From a virus (lineage: Duplodnaviria; Heunggongvirae; Uroviricota; Caudoviricetes): 60,485 nucleotides of DNA. Position numbers and translations under genes: made by a program. Below are positions 19,438 to 57,017 of the stretch, piece by piece. The notes below the pieces were generated by a model. The model did no database searches, was not told where the DNA came from, and saw nothing but the letters and a program-made list of their open reading frames with translations. The stretch's first letter is position 1. Every line of letters starts with the position of its first letter. Location of the stretch: IMG/VR virus record IMGVR_UViG_2671181056_000013, positions 1 to 60,485 of that record. One strand, 5' to 3'.

Positions 19438-19959
19438 TTAAAACGGAAGGATTCGTTCAACCCAATCGAAGAAAATAAGTATTTTTCTACCGTCTTCCAA
19501 CTTAAGTGTGACTAGACAGGCGTCAACGCCATCTGACGTTCCCTCAATTTCGCGACCGTCTGCCATGTAGACCCTTATAGATTTGCCGTTTTGGTAAGCC
19601 TGACGACATATCTTAAAAAAGTCACGACGTGATGGCTGATTAACCATCTGTTCATTGTTTAGCGTTAGTCGACCTGTGAATGAAGTGTCAACCTCTTCTA
19701 TGCCCGACTCAATTGTGCTAATGCGCTCAAGAGGGAGCCTTATACGATTTGTGTTGCTAAGCGGATCTGGTGTGAGGTTCAGCTTATTTCTTGCGCTCAA
19801 TAGCCCGTAGACATACATGCAAAACACTTGGCCGTCTTCGAGAGTGACTCTTACAGGAAATTTTGCACTCCGCCAGAAGAGCAAGGTACGTTCAGCATGT
19901 TCGTAGTCTCGCGGCCATACTTCAGCCGGTATGCCGTAGGTGATGTCCAATGTTCTCAT
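19438..19959 (-). CDS. hypothetical cytoplasmic protein (173 aa), translationally coupled to the upstream secreted protein
   Basis: ATGA overlap with the 19956-20549 ORF; a hairpin plus T-run terminator at 19396-19424 on the minus strand. Confidence 0.6.
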   Translation of the reverse strand: MRTLDITYGIPAEVWPRDYEHAERTLLFWRSAKFPVRVTLEDGQVFCMYVYGLLSARNKLNLTPDPLSNTNRIRLPLERISTIESGIEEVDTSFTGRLTLNNEQMVNQPSRRDFFKICRQAYQNGKSIRVYMADGREIEGTSDGVDACLVTLKLEDGRKILIFFDWVERILPF

Positions 19960-21011: not shown

Positions 21012-22571
21012 CTAATCTCGTTTCAGAACTCCAAAATCGAATGCGCCATCAATAGGCAATACACCTTCTGCAAAGCCAGGTGTGGTGTCGATGATGTGTT
21101 TTCGCTCATAAGAGTGAGACAACAGGTATTTGTTGCTAATGTCAATGAAATCAGTGATAAAACACACGTTTGCCTGATTCTTCTTGGCTCGTAAGCCACG
21201 ACCGACACGCTGCCTCATTTCAACTTCTGCTTTCCCACCACCAGCAAGAATGACCGCACCAACGCTTGGCACATCAACACCGACATCCAGAATAGTCGAG
21301 CCTATTAAAACATCTATTTCTCCAGACGCTAAACTGTTCAGCTTTGCTTGCCTTGTCGCCTGGTTAGATTCCCCATAGATGAAGTCAACTCTAAGGCCGG
21401 ACTCTTTCATCATTTCCATCAGGATTTGCCCGTGGCGTTTAAGGCGAACCAGAGTCATACAATTGAGAGAATGTTGCTTATAGAGCAATGCTTCGCGCAC
21501 AATGGCCTCGTTACGTCCCAAATTATACACGATCCCCAACTGATAAGCCTTTTGGTAGGCGGTGCTCATACCAACTCTAAAATTGAGGTGTTTGTTGGCA
21601 AGTTCGGCCTTGATTCTGGCCTCGTCTGGCTTGTAGGCAACTTTATGATAAAGGAAGTACGGCTTTGCCAGAATGCCTCGATCAATCAGATACTTTTCTG
21701 TGACTTTAATTTCAATTCGCCCGGCCACCGCCATCAGGCGCATGTTGGCTTCCGTCGAATCCTTCATGAACGGCGTGGCTGTAAGCGCCAGACGATAGTC
21801 TGCGTTCACACATAATCTGGCGATGTCATAGAAATTTGAGCCTGAAGACTCATGCGCCTCTTCCAGAATAAGAAGAGAGACACTTGAAAGGAAGCGTTTC
21901 ACCAACTCCCGACGTTTGAGGTGGTAGCTTTTCTTATCTGGTGTTGCATCGCGTGGTGGTTCTTCGAGGAAACTTGCAAGAGTTTGAACTGTAGCGACGT
22001 TGATATGTCGTGATACCTGGAACTCACCCGAGCCAATGACTCCAACCTTTTGGTCTTTTAACCACGGTTCGCCATTTTTGGCGCGGTAGTCGATGGATCT
22101 CTGGAAGTTTTCGGCCATTTGAAACATCAGAACAGAGCGGGTTGTTAAAAATAATGTCATTCGACCGATACGTGCAGCTGCTTTGCAGGCAACGTTAGAT
22201 TTCCCGCCACCAGTAGCGATCTGCGCAATCATCATTCCCTCTCGAACCAGTGTTTCCACAGTCTGATCCTGATACGCATAATCAGGATTGTATGGGAATG
22301 GGTTAACCGCCGGATTTGGTTTACCAAGCGCCGGGGCTTTGTCTTTGCGGATATGAACACATTTGATGCCCGCCTTGTTCAAATTAGCCGCCACGGGCTT
22401 GGCAAAGCCAGCAGGGAACGAGTTTTTGCTCCAGTTGAACATTGTGCTTGTGCCCTTCCAGTCGCCAGCCTCGACTTCGTAGCTCAACATTTGCTGCACC
22501 AGTTGCTTTACCTTGTCATCTGCGCCAGAAATAAGCGCATTTACTGCGTTAGATACAATCCGAACAGTCAT
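21012..22571 (-). CDS. SF2 (DEAD/DEAH-box-like) helicase
   Basis: Walker A ATGGGKS, motif II LEEAHE, motif III TAT and motif VI QRVGRGLR are all present. Confidence 0.85.
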   Translation of the reverse strand: MTVRIVSNAVNALISGADDKVKQLVQQMLSYEVEAGDWKGTSTMFNWSKNSFPAGFAKPVAANLNKAGIKCVHIRKDKAPALGKPNPAVNPFPYNPDYAYQDQTVETLVREGMMIAQIATGGGKSNVACKAAARIGRMTLFLTTRSVLMFQMAENFQRSIDYRAKNGEPWLKDQKVGVIGSGEFQVSRHINVATVQTLASFLEEPPRDATPDKKSYHLKRRELVKRFLSSVSLLILEEAHESSGSNFYDIARLCVNADYRLALTATPFMKDSTEANMRLMAVAGRIEIKVTEKYLIDRGILAKPYFLYHKVAYKPDEARIKAELANKHLNFRVGMSTAYQKAYQLGIVYNLGRNEAIVREALLYKQHSLNCMTLVRLKRHGQILMEMMKESGLRVDFIYGESNQATRQAKLNSLASGEIDVLIGSTILDVGVDVPSVGAVILAGGGKAEVEMRQRVGRGLRAKKNQANVCFITDFIDISNKYLLSHSYERKHIIDTTPGFAEGVLPIDGAFDFGVLKRD

Positions 22572-22635
22572 AAACCTCTTTCCTTAGTGCCTTTTGTATG
22601 TTATTTGGCTATTATAATAAGTAAGTGATTACTTA

Positions 22636-23334
22636 GTGGATTGTAGCAATAAAATGGACGTAAAAATCACGATTTTGCAGGTTGATGTTGCCAACCTTCG
22701 CCCGAATACCTGGAACACCAATTCGGTTGGTGCGCAGAATTTCGAAAAACTGAAAGGTTCTATCGAAAAATTGGGCTTTTTTAAGCCAATTTTGGCTCGT
22801 GAACTTGAAGATGGATTTTTTGAAATCCTCGGCGGCGAACATCGCTGGCGTGCCGCTATTGAGCAAGGAATTTCAACGGTTCCAGTGCTTTCTGTGGGCA
22901 AAATTAGCGATGTCGTAGCTAAACAGATGTCACTGGTGGACAACGAGCGATACGGTGAAGACGACCAAATCGCATTGCAACGCTTCATTGAAGAAATTCA
23001 GTCAGAACTTGACTATCAACTGTCTGAAATCGCCCCGTATGACGACGAAATCTCGATGGTTTTAGCAAAAGAGGCGGCAATCGACCTTGAAGCACTGGAG
23101 GCGTTGTCTCGTGGTAGTGATGAGCCTGTCGATACCGACAAACGAGAGAAAACCGAACGTGTGGGGGCGGAACATCAGACCATGCGCTTCAAAGTAACTT
23201 TCGATGCGTCAGATCGTGTTGCAGAAACCATAAAAAACATCATCAAAGAGCAGGCTATTAACACCGGTAATGAAATGGAGAACGCTGGTGAGGCTCTGGT
23301 GTGGCTGGTCGACTACTACAAGGAGCGTATGTAA
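22636..23334 (+). CDS. ParB/Srx-fold N-terminal-domain protein (ParB-like nuclease domain)
   Basis: GGEHRWRAA motif typical of the ParB N-terminal domain; the true start may be the ATG at 22654. Confidence 0.7.
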   Translation: MDCSNKMDVKITILQVDVANLRPNTWNTNSVGAQNFEKLKGSIEKLGFFKPILARELEDGFFEILGGEHRWRAAIEQGISTVPVLSVGKISDVVAKQMSLVDNERYGEDDQIALQRFIEEIQSELDYQLSEIAPYDDEISMVLAKEAAIDLEALEALSRGSDEPVDTDKREKTERVGAEHQTMRFKVTFDASDRVAETIKNIIKEQAINTGNEMENAGEALVWLVDYYKERM

Positions 23335-24002
23335 TGACCAAAAAGTTTGAAATCGTATATCGCGACCCGGCAGATCTTATTCCCTATGAGATGAATGCCA
23401 AAAAGCATGATGAACAGCAGATCAGAGATCTGGCCGCAGCCATTAAAAAGCGCGGATTTGACCAGCCAATTACGGTCGATAAGAACGACGTAATTATTAC
23501 TGGCCACGGCCGTCGTGAGGCTGCAATTTTTGCTGGACTTGAGCGTGTACCGGTTATTGTTCGCGATGATCTCAGTGATGACGAGGTTCGTGCGAAGCGC
23601 CTTGAAGATAACCGACTTGCCAGCATTGATTACGATGCAATTAAGCTACAGAAAGAGCTTGAGTCGCTTGTTCTGGACGATATCGAGGTTTTCGGCTTCG
23701 AAGAGCGTGAGTTGAATGTTCTCGTTGGCAGTATGACAGAAGAAATGGACACCGACTCGCTAGTTATCGATCTTGGCGAAGAAACTAAACGACAGAAGGA
23801 TGAACACACCGAGATCAGTCGTGAAGTTGCAGCGGAAGAAGTACGTGTTGTCGACGTATTGGGCTTTAAAACGCTTCCTGCTGGCTCTGCCATTGTTGTT
23901 GGTGATTTGCTTGCCCACATGGAAGAAATGACGGGAGAAAGCGGGGTAGACGCATTTGTGGCATATGCGGAGAAAATCTCTTCCGGGGAGATGGCTGCAT
24001 GA
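23334..24002 (+). CDS. second ParB-like N-terminal-domain protein
   Basis: ITGHGRREAA motif; start overlaps the previous stop (TAATG). Confidence 0.7.
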   Translation: MTKKFEIVYRDPADLIPYEMNAKKHDEQQIRDLAAAIKKRGFDQPITVDKNDVIITGHGRREAAIFAGLERVPVIVRDDLSDDEVRAKRLEDNRLASIDYDAIKLQKELESLVLDDIEVFGFEERELNVLVGSMTEEMDTDSLVIDLGEETKRQKDEHTEISREVAAEEVRVVDVLGFKTLPAGSAIVVGDLLAHMEEMTGESGVDAFVAYAEKISSGEMAA

Positions 24003-24637
24003 GCAAATACATCATCAACGTATCGTTTCAGACACGCGTAAATAAAACCACGCGCACGTTGGAAATCGCTGAGTCGTTCGGGCTTGGCCTGGACGAAAAA
24101 GAGTGGACGCTTTACGACAATCTGGAGCTGGAAGTGAAGCAGGGCGATGTGGTGTACATCACCGGCCAATCCGGTTCCGGCAAATCCGTTGTGCTGCGCG
24201 AGTTGCAACGACAGATGAAGGATGAAGGGCTGTCTGTAGCCTCCATCGATGATTTTACCTTCGATAATGAGGTTAACGTCATCGATCAGTTGGGCAAAAC
24301 GACCAGTGATGCGCTTGGGTTGTTATCTATGGCTGGTCTGAACGATGCATATCTGTTTGTTCGCAAGCCTTCTGAAATGTCAGACGGCCAGAAATATCGT
24401 CTCAAGATTGCCAAACTGATTGAGTCAGGCGCTAAAGTATGGGCTGCTGACGAGTTCGGCGCTGTTCTAGACCGTGTAACCGCTCAGGTTGTGGCGTCTA
24501 ACCTCCAGCGTGCCGCTCGAAAGGTTGGTGCGACGGTAATGGTGGCGACGACTCACGAAGACCTGAAGAACGCGCTGCGCCCGGATATGCAGATCACCAA
24601 GCACTACAAAGAACGCGTGAAGGTGGAATATGCCTGA
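23999..24637 (+). CDS. ABC-type ATPase (no transmembrane domain)
   Basis: Walker A GQSGSGKS, signature-like MSDGQKYRL, Walker B AADEFGA and H-loop TTHE. Confidence 0.7.
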   Translation: MSKYIINVSFQTRVNKTTRTLEIAESFGLGLDEKEWTLYDNLELEVKQGDVVYITGQSGSGKSVVLRELQRQMKDEGLSVASIDDFTFDNEVNVIDQLGKTTSDALGLLSMAGLNDAYLFVRKPSEMSDGQKYRLKIAKLIESGAKVWAADEFGAVLDRVTAQVVASNLQRAARKVGATVMVATTHEDLKNALRPDMQITKHYKERVKVEYA

Positions 24638-24884
24638 TTTGAAGATCGTAGAGCTGAAGCCATCGAAAGAGACTGATAACAACAACGTGGAAGTCATCCG
24701 CCTGCTGGAAGAAGCACTTCAGCACGCCAGAGAAGGAAAAAGCCAGAGCCTGGCGCTGTTGATGATCAACAACGACGGCAGTGTTCTTGATTGCTGGCAT
24801 AACGGCGGGCGCCCGTATGTCATGGTAGGGGCGATGGAGTCTCTTCGCCTGGATTTCATCAATGCCAATATCGAGCGCAGGTGA
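24630..24884 (+). CDS. hypothetical protein (84 aa)
   Basis: ORF overlapping its neighbours by 8 and 4 nt, suggesting operon membership. Confidence 0.5.
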   Translation: MPDLKIVELKPSKETDNNNVEVIRLLEEALQHAREGKSQSLALLMINNDGSVLDCWHNGGRPYVMVGAMESLRLDFINANIERR

Positions 24885-25780
24885 TCGACATGGCAGATAT
24901 CATCATCAAACGCTACCGCCCTGAAGAGTTTCCGCGTCATCTGGACTTTCTGGAGCGAATGACTGTCACAAAGGGAACTGTAGAGGACTGGCACGCTCTT
25001 AAGTCGCTTCACTACAAAACAGACGGCAAACCTTTCGCGCCAACTTACTATCGCTGCGAACTTGATGACCGTCTGGTGGGCGTCGTGGTTATGGCTTACC
25101 CGAAACTACTGTTGGCACCTCGCCACCGCATGTTTCCTAAGTTGAAACCAACCACTAATACCACCGTAGCTAACCAGTACTGGGGTCGGTACGTGAATAA
25201 CAACTTTGCGGTGATCAGTCGCTCAGTTGTGGATACTCAGTATCGTGGCGTAGGCGTCTCTTATCGAATGATTAACCTGGTTAGCAGGATGCATGACCGG
25301 CCAATCATTGAGATCCAGTCCTCGATGAGCAAATACAATCCCTTCGCCATGAAAGCAGGGTTTAAGTTCATCCGCCCTGAGCGACCGAAGAGCTATGAAA
25401 GTGCACTGCGTGTATTCCAGCGCCATTTCCGTTCCGACCCTGGTGATAACGAGGCGATCGTCAAAGAGTTGTTCGCAATGAGCGAGTCTCGTCGTCGCCG
25501 TGCACTGCGTGATCTGGTGGCGGACTACCACAAGAACAGTTCCCTGGCAAAAGCTGGGCGGAATCGTGGCACGACGATTCAGGACATTGCCGACAGTCTG
25601 GTGGACGAGGCCAGCATTGTGAAGCTGCTCAAGGACATTCACAACCTGAGCTTTACGTCTCCGTTGTATGGTGTGTACCGAAACCCTGACTTTGGTCGTC
25701 GACTGCCTGACACGCTGCCACTGCTGGCATTCGACAAACAACCTTTGGATAAACCGTTAGAAATTGCTTTACCGGCATAA
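24881..25780 (+). CDS. hypothetical protein (299 aa) with a possible GNAT-like acyltransferase core
   Basis: Q-Y-R-G-V-G-V resembles the GNAT motif A (Q/RxxGxG/A); assignment is tentative. Confidence 0.4.
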   Translation: MIDMADIIIKRYRPEEFPRHLDFLERMTVTKGTVEDWHALKSLHYKTDGKPFAPTYYRCELDDRLVGVVVMAYPKLLLAPRHRMFPKLKPTTNTTVANQYWGRYVNNNFAVISRSVVDTQYRGVGVSYRMINLVSRMHDRPIIEIQSSMSKYNPFAMKAGFKFIRPERPKSYESALRVFQRHFRSDPGDNEAIVKELFAMSESRRRRALRDLVADYHKNSSLAKAGRNRGTTIQDIADSLVDEASIVKLLKDIHNLSFTSPLYGVYRNPDFGRRLPDTLPLLAFDKQPLDKPLEIALPA

Positions 25781-25789
25781 GGATTTGCC

Positions 25790-26056
25790 ATGACGTTAAC
25801 CGACAAACAAAAGGACATCATCAAAACGCTCAATCTCGGTTATGAGCGAGGTCATCTACTTGATCTGGACGAATTGCTTGAAGTTTTGCCGTACAAGACA
25901 ACCAAGCAAAGCATCCAGTTCTCAATTCGCGCTCTGATAAAAAAGGGGCTGGTGGAGAAAGGACATACGCGCCAACGCAGTGACAATCGCTATCACCGCC
26001 GGACTCTTGGGTTAACCACTTTAGGTCGAGCCAAAGCGAAGTTACTGGTGATGTAA
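25790..26056 (+). CDS. small basic protein (88 aa), possible DNA-binding regulator
   Basis: Basic C-terminus; followed by the long palindrome at 26081. Confidence 0.4.
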   Translation: MTLTDKQKDIIKTLNLGYERGHLLDLDELLEVLPYKTTKQSIQFSIRALIKKGLVEKGHTRQRSDNRYHRRTLGLTTLGRAKAKLLVM

Positions 26057-26080
26057 TCGGTCTGGGAGCTTATTTAAAGA

Positions 26081-26135
26081 CCTGCTTCTGTATATATAAA
26101 TAATAAGTAACTTATTAAATATATACAGAAGCAGG
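26081..26135. repeat. 55-bp imperfect palindrome with 17-bp perfect arms (CCTGCTTCTGTATATAT ... ATATATACAGAAGCAGG), copy 1
   Basis: Read directly; outer arms GGTCTGGG / CCCAGACC extend the symmetry to about 100 bp. A second copy lies at 56965-57017. Confidence 0.7.
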
Positions 26136-26252
26136 CTTAGTAAGACATGCCCAGACCTAATTAAACACCCCAGAAAACAAGTTGGTTAGCATATGCAGTA
26201 AACAAGTTGTTTTAGAGCGCATGGACGCGCTCTGTGTGTTTTAGAGGGATCT

Positions 26253-26885
26253 ATGACGGTCGAAAAAGACGAGGTAAAAACTCGCCTGACACCAGCGGAG
26301 TGGGCCGAAGCTGAAGCCAAATGGACGTCAGGCGAATATACACTCTCAAAGCTGGAGGAAGAGTACGGCATTCGTCGTGAAACACTCTCCAGACATTTCA
26401 AAAAGCGAGGATTAGAGAAAGGCGCGGACTCTGTTGGGAAGATGGTTCGTGAGTCTCTTAAATCTGACGCAGAGCTTCGCGCTAAAGCCCGTGCGGAAAA
26501 GATAGAAGAACGTCGTACACGTTATGACGGCTGGGCGTATGCGTTGGGGCAGATGGTGATGGTCGAAGTCACTACGGCCAAACGTGAGGGTAAGCCTTTA
26601 GGGGCGATTGAGGATTCTCTCAAGAGCTTACAGAGAGCCAGTAATACTCTTGCAAAATGCTTTGAAGTTTCGTCCAAAGCATTGGGCATGGATCATGCGG
26701 AAAATGACGAGGAAGAAATTCCGAACCTGGTATTTGGTGAGCTTACGCCTTCCCAGGTGGCGAAATTACGTCAGGAAGACGACGAGCCTGAAATCATCGA
26801 TGACGAATTGCTTGAGACGTTGGAAGAAGAAGCTCTAAGCGAATTTGATGCGACAGATGATGGAAGTGAAGGGGAGGACGAATAA
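26253..26885 (+). CDS. putative terminase small subunit
   Basis: Directly upstream of, and abutting, the large terminase; 210 aa with acidic C-terminus. Call rests on position. Confidence 0.55.
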   Translation: MTVEKDEVKTRLTPAEWAEAEAKWTSGEYTLSKLEEEYGIRRETLSRHFKKRGLEKGADSVGKMVRESLKSDAELRAKARAEKIEERRTRYDGWAYALGQMVMVEVTTAKREGKPLGAIEDSLKSLQRASNTLAKCFEVSSKALGMDHAENDEEEIPNLVFGELTPSQVAKLRQEDDEPEIIDDELLETLEEEALSEFDATDDGSEGEDE

Positions 26886-28141
26886 TGGCAATCCCGTCCT
26901 CGCTCAGTCTTGTGCAACTGCATTCTGGACAGATGAAAGTCTTCCAGTCTCCGCATCGATTTAAAGTTGTTTGTGCTGGTCGACGCTGGGGAAAATCCCG
27001 GTTGTCGATCTCCACTATTATTCGTGCGGCGGCAAAGGAAAAAAAGCAAAGAGTCTGGTATGTCGCTCCTACTTACCAGATGGCTCGCCAGATTTTGTGG
27101 GACGATCTACAGGAAGTTCTGCCTCGTAAGTGGGTTAGGAAAAAGAACGACACCACGATGACAATCGTGTTGAAGAACGGTTCGGAGATCGCCCTCAAAG
27201 GTGCTGATAAGCCTGACACTCTGCGCGGCGTAGCGTTGCATTTTGTAGTGCTTGATGAATTTCAGGATATGAAGGCTGACACCTGGTACAAGGTGTTACG
27301 ACCTACTCTTTCATCGACACGCGGCGGTGCACTGATCATTGGTACGCCAAAAGGCTTCTCGGAATTTCACAAACTGTGGACTATAGGCCAGAACGTAGAG
27401 CTGCAAAGAAAGGGACAGTGGAAGAGCTGGCAGTTTGTAACTGCCGATTCTCCGTTTGTACCTACGGCGGAAATTGAAGCTGCTAAGAACGATATGGACC
27501 CGAAATCGTTCGCTCAGGAGTACCTGGCGAGCTTTGAGAACATGTCCGGGCGCGTTTACTACCCGTTCGATCGTAACGTGCATGTAAAACCGCTTCAGTT
27601 CAACCCTCGGTTGCCTATATGGGTAGGGCAGGACTTCAACATTGACCCGATGTCTTCAGTAATTTTGCAACCTCAGCCAAATGGTGAGCTATGGGCAATT
27701 GATGAATTGGTGCTCTTTTCCTCTAACACGGCAGAAGTTTGTGATGAGCTTGAGAGACGCTTCTGGCGCTGGAAATCACAGGTAACGGTATTTCCAGATC
27801 CGGCAGGTGCTTATCGCCAACATGCTCGTGGGGAGTCTGACGTAGACATATTCAAAGAGAAGGGATTCTTACGTGTCGATTATTCGAAAAAGCACCCGCC
27901 AATTGCGGATCGTGTTAATGCTGTTAACCGAATGCTGATGTCCGCATCTGGAGATATCCGGCTGTATATCGATCCGAAGTGCAAGCATTTGATTGATTCA
28001 CTGGAAAAAGTCATCTACAAGCCTGGAACACGAGATATGGATAAGACAGGTGGCATTGAGCATAGTGCAGACGCATTGGGCTATCCAGTACATCGTAGGT
28101 ATCCAGTAAAAAATCGTGTTATTCTTGGTGGTTCTCGATAG
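26885..28141 (+). CDS. terminase large subunit
   Basis: Walker A AGRRWGKS and Walker B VVLDEF in the N-terminal ATPase; nuclease-like C-terminal half. Confidence 0.85.
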   Translation: MAIPSSLSLVQLHSGQMKVFQSPHRFKVVCAGRRWGKSRLSISTIIRAAAKEKKQRVWYVAPTYQMARQILWDDLQEVLPRKWVRKKNDTTMTIVLKNGSEIALKGADKPDTLRGVALHFVVLDEFQDMKADTWYKVLRPTLSSTRGGALIIGTPKGFSEFHKLWTIGQNVELQRKGQWKSWQFVTADSPFVPTAEIEAAKNDMDPKSFAQEYLASFENMSGRVYYPFDRNVHVKPLQFNPRLPIWVGQDFNIDPMSSVILQPQPNGELWAIDELVLFSSNTAEVCDELERRFWRWKSQVTVFPDPAGAYRQHARGESDVDIFKEKGFLRVDYSKKHPPIADRVNAVNRMLMSASGDIRLYIDPKCKHLIDSLEKVIYKPGTRDMDKTGGIEHSADALGYPVHRRYPVKNRVILGGSR

Positions 28142-56964: not shown

Positions 56965-57017
56965 CCTGTTTCTGTATATAAATAATAAGTAACTTATTAA
57001 ATATATACGGAAGCAGG
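56965..57017. repeat. 55-bp imperfect palindrome, copy 2 (two substitutions relative to copy 1)
   Basis: CCTGTTTCTGTATATAT...ATATATACGGAAGCAGG; both substitutions keep pairing as G-U in plus-strand RNA. Confidence 0.7.

Follow-up and report, generated by a model that had tools for sequence, protein, structure and literature searches.

In 2013, Iyer, Zhang, Burroughs and Aravind predicted, as cited in PMC7824862, that a family of proteins in which an ABC-type ATPase is joined to a GNAT domain (ABC-GNAT) acylates a DNA base. The family came up again in Iyer et al. 2021 (PMC7824862), with Tenacibaculum phage pT24 among the examples. A literature search found no biochemical or experimental study of ABC-GNAT proteins since that prediction. 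Here we describe a gene cluster that appears to encode a split form of this enzyme together with two ParB-like proteins, carried on a 60,485-nucleotide stretch of viral DNA (IMG/VR record IMGVR_UViG_2671181056_000013, positions 1 to 60,485; hereafter the window). Judged by nucleotide identity, the window is an SSU5-like phage-plasmid of E. coli, an element type already known, since positions 22400-26300 are 98.5% identical to Escherichia phage CMS-2020a, similarly close to phages Cyrano and PhiR41_1, and 86% identical to Salmonella phage SSU5. Identity to Klebsiella SSU5-like phage-plasmids is ~81%.

Other described systems resemble parts of this cluster. Phage Mu encodes Mom (PF25680), a GNAT that modifies adenine in double-stranded DNA, using Gly-tRNA(Gly) (PMC13219725). 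TmcA and NAT10 combine an ATPase module with a GNAT and write N4-acetylcytidine (ac4C) in RNA, TmcA acting on tRNA (discussed in PMC13219725). According to a 2026 PNAS paper (PMC13229309), the phage thymine dioxygenase 5mYOX176 requires ParB176, a ParB-like protein that has NTP-binding and dimerisation domains and no DNA-binding domain, to act on double-stranded DNA; the same paper credits the 2013 study with the idea of ParB 'directing' modification enzymes. Kaljevic et al. 2025 (PMC12704722) found that ParB folds also occur in fusion with methyltransferases, a combination enriched in prophages, and with an acetyltransferase or ASCH. Finally, ASCH proteins hydrolyse N4-acylcytosine nucleosides (PMC6972931) and have been proposed as erasers of ac4C in tRNA.

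Results

The ABC ATPase and the GNAT-fold protein correspond to one fused enzyme

All the genes that a preliminary description had placed in this region lie where it put them, on the + strand. The cluster comprises:

22654-23334, + strand: ParB1, a ParB-like protein (Pfam ParB_N, E = 3.3e-13; phrog_723, E = 2e-79); its open reading frame (ORF) opens with a GTG at 22636
23334-24002, + strand: ParB2, a second ParB-like protein (ParB_N, E = 1.5e-8; phrog_930, E = 1e-112); its ORF opens with a GTG at 23301
23999-24637, + strand: soluble ABC ATPase of 212 aa (ABC_tran, E = 5.3e-13), a nucleotide-binding domain only
24630-24884, + strand: 84-aa ORF (phrog_796)
24881-25780, + strand: predicted GNAT-fold acyltransferase subunit of 299 aa (phrog_886; fold model), basic, with an isoelectric point (pI) of 9.8
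25790-26056, + strand: 88-aa winged-helix-like (wHTH) protein, basic, pI 10.2 (phrog_900, E = 2e-45; weak matches to LexA_DNA_bind, Sta1 and Lrs14)

Together these genes span 22654-26056. Because the start and stop codons of neighbouring genes overlap by 1-8 nt or stand 9 nt apart, a single operon, as had been proposed, is credible. The earlier boundary at 25780 was drawn too short, as it leaves out the syntenically conserved wHTH gene.

A profile search of 1.84 billion representatives returned 997 relatives of the 299-aa protein, many of which are 450-500 aa long, with ABC_tran as the N-terminal half and the GNAT-like part as the C-terminal half. Profile A1 matched such fused proteins strongly (1e-28 for P0155, 5.8e-27 for P0157), and the motifs HY, R-V-V, R-G-x-G and E...M are common to the window protein and its fused relatives. 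The ABC ATPase of the window likewise aligns with the N-terminal halves of two fused proteins, at 49% identity for P0185 and 41% for P0182, and the ATPase motifs are all kept. Because hundreds of relatives carry the two domains in a single polypeptide, to which a family B DNA polymerase (PolB) is joined in some cases, we treat the ABC and GNAT proteins as one enzyme. Their genes are adjacent in Cyrano and PhiR41_1; in the window the 84-aa ORF is inserted between them.

By homology, then, the window pair is of the COG2401 type (MK0520-like), described as an 'ABC-type ATPase fused to a predicted acetyltransferase domain'. It has the same two domains in the same order, is homologous to the fused forms at the levels just given, and is phage-borne near genes of DNA metabolism. 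It differs from the COG2401 fusions in that the enzyme is divided over two genes, which flank a variable cargo slot, and in that the module adds two ParB/Srx proteins and a small wHTH protein. On these comparisons the window module is a split, ParB-duplicated member of a computationally predicted system, and its kind is not itself new.

The preliminary description had called the first subunit a soluble ABC ATPase, which the intact motifs bear out: Walker A (GQSGSGKS), signature (SDGQ), Walker B (AADEF), D-loop and H-loop. No permease family was found among the operon and neighbouring proteins in Pfam and PHROGs, searches that included no dedicated transmembrane prediction. The label 'ABC transporter' thus appears misleading, and the protein is better read as the ATPase subunit of a split ABC-GNAT enzyme. 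In one relative, P0166, the ABC domain holds an intein with a LAGLIDADG endonuclease.

The assignment of the 299-aa protein to the GNATs, which the preliminary description had made from a motif, holds at the level of fold and through homologues, but not by the protein's own Pfam score: its sole GNAT match, to Acetyltransf_10, is sub-threshold (E = 0.038; 14.4 bits, where 23.6 are required). Distant homologues pass the Acetyltransf_1 cut-off of 20.7 (P0238, 25.6 bits; P0155, 21.5 bits). An AlphaFold model built from a 38-sequence alignment (predicted local distance difference test, pLDDT, 89; predicted template modelling score, pTM, 0.80) has the GNAT alpha/beta fold, with a core at residues ~27-165, a helical insertion of ~85 residues at ~172-258 and returning strands at 262-280. 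The pyrophosphate-binding motif after beta4 had been given as Q-x-x-G-x-G; the class Q/R-x-x-G-x-G/A applies, and the actual residues are R122-G-V-G125-V-S127. Both R122 and G125 are invariant, and R122-G-x-G125 occupies the acyl-CoA pyrophosphate site of GNATs; fused relatives carry a canonical R-G-I-G-L-G there. From the model and these homologues, we conclude with confidence in the fold that the protein is a GNAT. Searches of PDB sequences with the protein or its profile gave nothing meaningful (AlkD, E~1; a myosin chimera, E = 3.1), and NCBIfam has no specific family for the GNAT, wHTH or TerS-like proteins of this region.

Among viral structure models searched with Foldseek, the best match of the 299-aa protein was Mom, and the longest alignments were to ~550-aa 'endonuclease-like' proteins. 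The window protein shares with Mom the GNAT fold, a late helical insertion, a basic character and a late phage gene. In a weak hhalign alignment its invariant H44 and Y45 and its likewise invariant beta4 R114 fall opposite Mom H58/Y59 and R111 and may correspond to them, whereas Mom S124, D149 and R151 found no clear counterparts. Membership of the Mom family was considered and rejected: there was no PF25680 match at E<=0.1, and hhalign against a Mom profile was not significant, so we keep the resemblance at the level of fold and motif. The proteins also differ in that the window GNAT retains a CoA-type R-x-x-G-x-G/S motif that Mom lacks, which points to acyl-CoA rather than an aminoacyl-tRNA as the donor. 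Mom moreover acts alone, whereas ABC-GNAT has an ABC ATPase partner, and the neighbouring genes are different.

Two acidic ParB-like proteins precede the enzyme

The two consecutive ParB/Srx proteins, recognised earlier by the motifs GGEHRWRAA and GHGRREAA, both score above the cut-off for PF02195 (ParB_N) and so belong to the ParB/Srx superfamily. ParB1 has invariant residues G60, G61, H63, R64 and A68 in the first motif. The protein, of pI 4.6, begins with a ParB/Srx NTP-binding domain, which an acidic linker connects to a small beta-alpha-alpha-like region at the C-terminus; its AlphaFold2 model has a pLDDT of 60 overall and is confident for residues 1-100 only. ParB2, whose motif is of the AGHGRR type, has a more divergent ParB/Srx domain and an acidic C-terminal half. 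The P-motif arginine is retained in both (ParB1 R64, in G-G-x-H-R; ParB2 R60, in G-H-x-R), and the first arginine of GERR is substituted. Both proteins are acidic throughout (pI ~4.5). We considered their C-terminal beta-alpha-alpha segments as ribbon-helix-helix DNA-binding domains and dropped the idea because both segments are acidic (pI 4.3-4.9).

One explanation for such proteins is plasmid partition, with the two ParBs as centromere-binding proteins, in line with the NCBI name 'ParB/RepB/Spo0J family partition protein' and the RefSeq name 'partition protein'. The element does live as a plasmid prophage: of 5426 complete E. coli genomes, 247 (~4.6%) carry the cluster, every time on a plasmid, of ~110 kb. 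Both proteins have ParB_N, and the best PDB matches of ParB1 are the N-terminal domains of Spo0J, ParB and Noc. Against this, both ParBs score 43 bits on TIGR00180, the partition ParB family, under its cut-off of 58.45; neither has a Pfam HTH or C-terminal domain family, and a canonical HTH/dimerisation domain was not found; there is no ParA gene among the operon genes. The ParBs, moreover, are always in one operon with ABC-GNAT beside terminase genes, and the module is kept in Nickievirus, Rhizobium, Streptococcus, Gordonia and Leptospira phages with no sign of a plasmid lifestyle. Given the sub-cut-off scores, the missing HTH and ParA, the acidity and these phages, we give partition very little credence.

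A parallel is 5mYOX176 with ParB176, in which a phage ParB-like protein lacking a canonical DNA-binding domain sits beside an enzyme that modifies DNA post-replicatively, here a predicted one. There the partner is an Fe/2OG dioxygenase with one ParB, whereas here it is ABC-GNAT with two divergent ParBs; the ParB dependence of the window enzyme is a prediction, and many ABC-GNAT relatives have no ParB nearby. ParB2 also resembles the ParB_N-DNA methyltransferase fusions, matching their N-terminal domain in phrog_498 ('DNA methyltransferase', E = 5e-32) and in the PADLOC model MTase_II (PDLC03229, E = 2.7e-17). It differs from them in that the window has no methyltransferase domain and a separate ABC-GNAT would be the catalytic partner. 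In Streptococcus Javan phages, a gene beside the ABC homologue is annotated 'DNA modification methylase'. PADLOC defence models gave only generic ParB-MTase and P-loop matches across the cluster.

Relatives lie in replication modules and beside terminase genes

The fused relatives include PolB-ABC-GNAT proteins (P0180 and P0191). P0191, a 1260-aa family B DNA polymerase joined to ABC-GNAT (L099; L100, 7001-10783), is found on at least 24 metagenomic contigs, within a phage replication module among Prim-Pol, RecA and SbcC-like genes. Elsewhere in phage contigs, fused ABC-GNAT genes adjoin DnaB, a DHH protein and Pol III alpha. The polymerase fusions, and DnaB, Pol III alpha, RecA and Prim-Pol as neighbours, point towards DNA as a candidate target.

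The split form has a conserved setting of its own. At only 40-45% protein identity, the order helicase (- strand), ParB, ParB, ABC, variable slot, GNAT, wHTH, gap, TerS-like, TerL, portal is found complete in a prophage-like region of an Ectothiorhodospira contig, in a metagenomic phage, in Pseudomonas Nickievirus phages and in Rhizobium phages (RHph). A shorter order, in which ParB is followed by ABC(-GNAT) and then by terminase, is found repeatedly, also in otherwise unrelated phages, and its carriers include phages of Proteobacteria, Firmicutes, Actinobacteria and Spirochaetes. In Streptococcus prophage 315.4 the genes are ParB_N, ABC, a small gene, ASCH, TerS-like and TerL; in Gordonia phage BiggityBass they are a ParB-like gene (by GenBank annotation only, with no Pfam match), ABC-GNAT, a methyltransferase and terminase; and in Leptospira phage LE4 they are a ParB-like gene with a weak score (ParB_N, E = 7e-4), ABC-GNAT and TerL. 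The ABC protein of Tenacibaculum phage pT24 is a detectable relative. We also inspected 80 IMG/VR loci with the fused enzyme (L017-L096), which are all the closest relatives of one query and so do not represent independent lineages. In 50 of the 80, TerL lies directly upstream of the fused gene on the same strand, and the two ORFs overlap or are 6 nt apart in L049, L063 and L008. Many of these contigs end a few hundred bases past the ABC-GNAT gene, as if at a genome or prophage boundary.

In the window, the operon is followed by packaging genes (the TerS-like gene, TerL and portal), and the junction carries a palindrome:

26047-26169, no strand: imperfect palindrome of ~120 bp (core 26081-26135), at the junction of the module and the TerS-like gene
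26253-26885, + strand: TerS-like DNA-binding protein (phrog_867)
26885-28141, + strand: terminase large subunit, TerL (Terminase_6N, E = 3e-9; phrog_2, phrog_10250)

The palindrome is housed in the 196-bp gap between the wHTH and TerS-like genes. Its core of ~53 bp, with CCTGCTTCTGTATATAT...ATATATACAGAAGCAGG flanking an AT-rich centre, has a second copy of ~94% identity at 56965-57017, in a divergent region upstream of replication genes (a 249-aa gene and one for a DnaB-like helicase). Half-sites of the palindrome were found four times, against 0.06 expected by chance. Large inverted repeats of unrelated sequence occupy the same position between wHTH and TerS-like genes in distant relatives (L003, 9175-9289; L004, 9322-9377; L007, 7130-7214), which with the window makes four divergent lineages. 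By sequence and placing, the two copies of the core look like a candidate operator that the packaging and replication operons share. In GenBank, the linear records for SSU5 and Cyrano terminate at the palindrome centre (~26117), which may be the genome end or merely the depositors' cut point. We also considered the palindrome as a unique cos site, an idea weakened by the second copy. In Rfam, the palindrome alone surfaced, as a far-sub-threshold miRNA hairpin.

This setting raises the possibility, also offered in the preliminary description as packaging-site recognition, that the cluster encodes a packaging accessory complex, in which the ParBs and the ABC protein would organise, mark or process the concatemer at or close to the packaging site, taken to be the junction with the palindrome, and the GNAT would acetylate TerS, TerL or portal. 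The tight link to terminase in several phage lineages speaks for it: the module abuts the packaging operon in all SSU5-like relatives inspected and in 315.4, BiggityBass and LE4, and the fused gene is so often directly 3' of TerL. So do the record ends of SSU5 and Cyrano in the palindrome just past the module, and Nican01, which has long direct terminal repeats and a linear record that ends ~1 kb beyond the module. Some relatives, however, are fused to PolB or belong to replication modules with no terminase gene nearby; the window has a TerS-like gene apart from the module and an ordinary TerL; and a palindrome with a second copy by replication genes is more readily explained as an operator than as a unique packaging site. 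The five proteins show no resemblance to known terminase accessory proteins, and the clear homology of this kind that the preliminary description had set against its own proposal did not appear: in comparisons with characterised TerS, HNH and accessory proteins, the sole match of the module was that of the ABC P-loop to phrog_800 (E = 0.002). The head of a late operon, finally, is also the usual place of phage DNA methyltransferases. Weighing both sides, we think a role in packaging itself unlikely.

Genes of a further family recur beside the enzyme. ASCH (PF04266) genes lie near ABC-GNAT in 11 of the 80 IMG/VR loci, 7 of them within ~400 nt downstream, and also in 315.4 and L101; those immediately downstream are convergent in orientation. 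Examples are:

L058, 8407-8739: ASCH gene
L073, 6830-7213: ASCH gene
L061, 3976-4335: ASCH gene
L034, 8687-9037: ASCH gene
L084, 350-724: ASCH gene
L013, 6113-6490: ASCH gene
L101, 9859-10119: ASCH gene

There is no ASCH gene in the window. By analogy with the hydrolases introduced above, these neighbours hint at the chemistry of the predicted modification.

The same neighbours are compatible with an ATP-dependent acetyltransferase whose target is not DNA but tRNA or another RNA, a host protein or a small-molecule immune signal, with the ParBs as NTP-binding regulators. Its role would then be host takeover or counter-defence, modelled on a TmcA/NAT10-like ac4C writer or on phiKMV Rac, which acts on RNA polymerase. 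ASCH proteins are proven ac4C nucleoside amidohydrolases and proposed tRNA erasers, and the nearest mechanistic precedent for an ATPase with a GNAT, TmcA, acts on tRNA (PMC13219725). In addition, structural neighbours at the top of the list for the 299-aa protein include RimI, NatA and other protein N-acetyltransferases, the ABC domain scores ABC-F ribosome-binding proteins about equal to transporters, and variable operon slots hold accessory genes such as DUF2829. TmcA and NAT10 resemble the window pair in coupling an NTPase to a GNAT and, if the predicted chemistry of the window pair is right, in acylating an exocyclic base amine (with acetyl-CoA); ASCH-type ac4C hydrolases would be a functional counterpart. 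But their ATPase is of the helicase type (DUF699), their substrate is RNA, and no search made here found a sequence relationship. The polymerase fusion and the replication genes around relatives indicate DNA instead, ParB/Srx partners elsewhere in phages go with DNA methyltransferases and DNA dioxygenases, and a place in the late operon is ill-suited to an early takeover factor. A target other than DNA, like the takeover or counter-defence role that would go with it, therefore seems rather improbable to us.

A predicted late, ParB-assisted DNA acyltransferase

The preliminary description had offered DNA modification, anti-restriction and packaging-site recognition side by side. DNA modification is the best supported of these, by the ABC-GNAT fusions, the 2013 prediction and the precedent of a ParB activator, and anti-restriction would be a plausible consequence of it. 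Our preferred reading, which we put forward tentatively and as somewhat short of an even call, is that the cluster encodes a DNA acyltransferase that acts late, depends on ATP, is assisted by ParB and protects virion DNA.

Such a multi-subunit machine would work on phage DNA that has been replicated, either ahead of packaging or while packaging proceeds. The ABC domains, dimerising under the drive of ATP, would engage or hold the substrate, and the basic GNAT subunit would move an acyl group to an exocyclic base amine in double-stranded phage DNA. The donor would most likely be acyl-CoA, because an R-x-x-G-x-G/A/S pyrophosphate motif is kept. The acidic ParB pair, gated by NTP, would activate the enzyme on duplex DNA or recruit it there, in the manner of the ParB partner of 5mYOX176, and the basic wHTH protein may confer specificity or regulation. 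The contrast in charge between the GNAT (pI 9.8) and the ParBs (pI 4.5) supports such an arrangement. Modified virion DNA would be guarded against restriction or other DNA-sensing defences and against host nucleases.

Several observations weigh against this proposal. DNA as the substrate of the module is something we infer from the company that its relatives keep, and ASCH activity is so far known on free nucleosides and tRNA, not DNA. Streptococcus prophage 315.4 has ParB, ABC and ASCH genes, yet no GNAT was detected there. A ParB was not detected within 7 kb of the fused enzyme at any of the 80 IMG/VR loci, so ParB is not obligatory for the ABC-GNAT family. Against a 31-sequence Mom profile, hhalign gave E = 0.12 for A1 and E = 0.0036, with a probability of 9%, for A2. 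The literature searched contained no mention of modified bases in the DNA of SSU5-like phages.

A more specific version of the DNA acyltransferase proposal would be a new base mark, an ATP-dependent, ParB-activated N-acylation (for example N4-acyl-deoxycytidine or N6-acyl-deoxyadenosine) laid down late, at or just before packaging, with ASCH proteins as its readers or erasers. We regard this version as possible but on the whole doubtful; our literature search found nothing on N4-acetyl-deoxycytidine in phages. Because N-acyl bases are labile, such marks may escape routine detection, and routine sequencing or alkaline sample preparation may miss them.

If this version is right, Mom would no longer be the only GNAT-based DNA modification system, and the one described here would be the first of them to depend on an ABC ATPase. 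The principle of ParB as an activator would reach a second class of DNA-modifying enzyme, and phage ASCH domains would gain a role. As the system is present in E. coli phage-plasmids and in cultured E. coli and Salmonella phages (Cyrano, PhiR41_1 and SSU5), its chemistry is testable in the most tractable host.

Spread and annotation of the module

The module is core to the whole lineage of ~110-kb siphoviruses and phage-plasmids. Its gene content in SSU5 is already annotated, in part wrongly ('ABC transporter', 'partition protein'). In public records the GNAT-fold protein is commonly labelled 'ABC transporter ATP-binding protein' and the ATPase 'ABC transporter'; ParB1 appears as 'partition protein' and ParB2, in one record, as 'DNA modification methylase'. 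The PHROG family of the 299-aa protein, phrog_886, carries the name 'ABC transporter ATP-binding subunit', which is a mis-annotation. IMG and the Cyrano GenBank record already give that protein the COG2401 name quoted above. The misleading names, 'ABC transporter' for the ATPase and GNAT and 'partition protein' for the ParBs, have spread through thousands of plasmid and phage records.

Variable slot, wHTH gene and divergent spacer

The 84-aa ORF is an indel, missing from the near-identical (98%) Cyrano and PhiR41_1, in which the GNAT gene directly follows the ABC gene. In relatives the slot between ABC and GNAT is a hotspot for small cargo genes and holds DUF2829 (Rhizobium phages) or Phage_gp49_66 and a RyR-domain protein (L003). 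Because it is absent from close phages and the content of the slot differs among relatives, we take the 84-aa ORF to be variable, dispensable cargo and not part of the core.

The wHTH gene has syntenic orthologs in L003, L004, L006 and L007 at 19-32% identity. As it stands downstream of the GNAT gene in every relative of the lineage inspected, its product is probably part of the module or its regulator.

On the other side, the operon diverges from a helicase gene across a short spacer:

21012-22571, - strand: SF2 (UvsW-like) helicase (Pfam ResIII, DEAD and Helicase_C), a divergent neighbour given for context
22572-22653, no strand: AT-rich divergent spacer of 82 bp between the helicase gene and ParB1

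The divergent arrangement, noted before, is kept in all relatives inspected (L003, L004, L006 and L007). A shared promoter had been proposed at 22572-22654. A consensus scan of this interval found no sigma-70-type promoter, but the proposal is still plausible: the self-complementary TATTATAATA at 22610-22619 contains a perfect TATAAT -10 hexamer on both strands, without a -35 element. From its sequence, TATTATAATA could be a pair of overlapping back-to-back -10 elements and hence a candidate shared promoter. Minus-strand ORFs within the region had no match to a PHROG family.

Further along the - strand, at 19438-19959, lies the gene of a 173-aa protein with a Pfam match to Flag1_repress (FljA, which represses phase-1 flagellin; E = 1.4e-68). 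A homologue of a flagellar phase-variation repressor is unexpected on a phage-plasmid. The 18-20 kb stretch around this gene has a low GC content (0.39).

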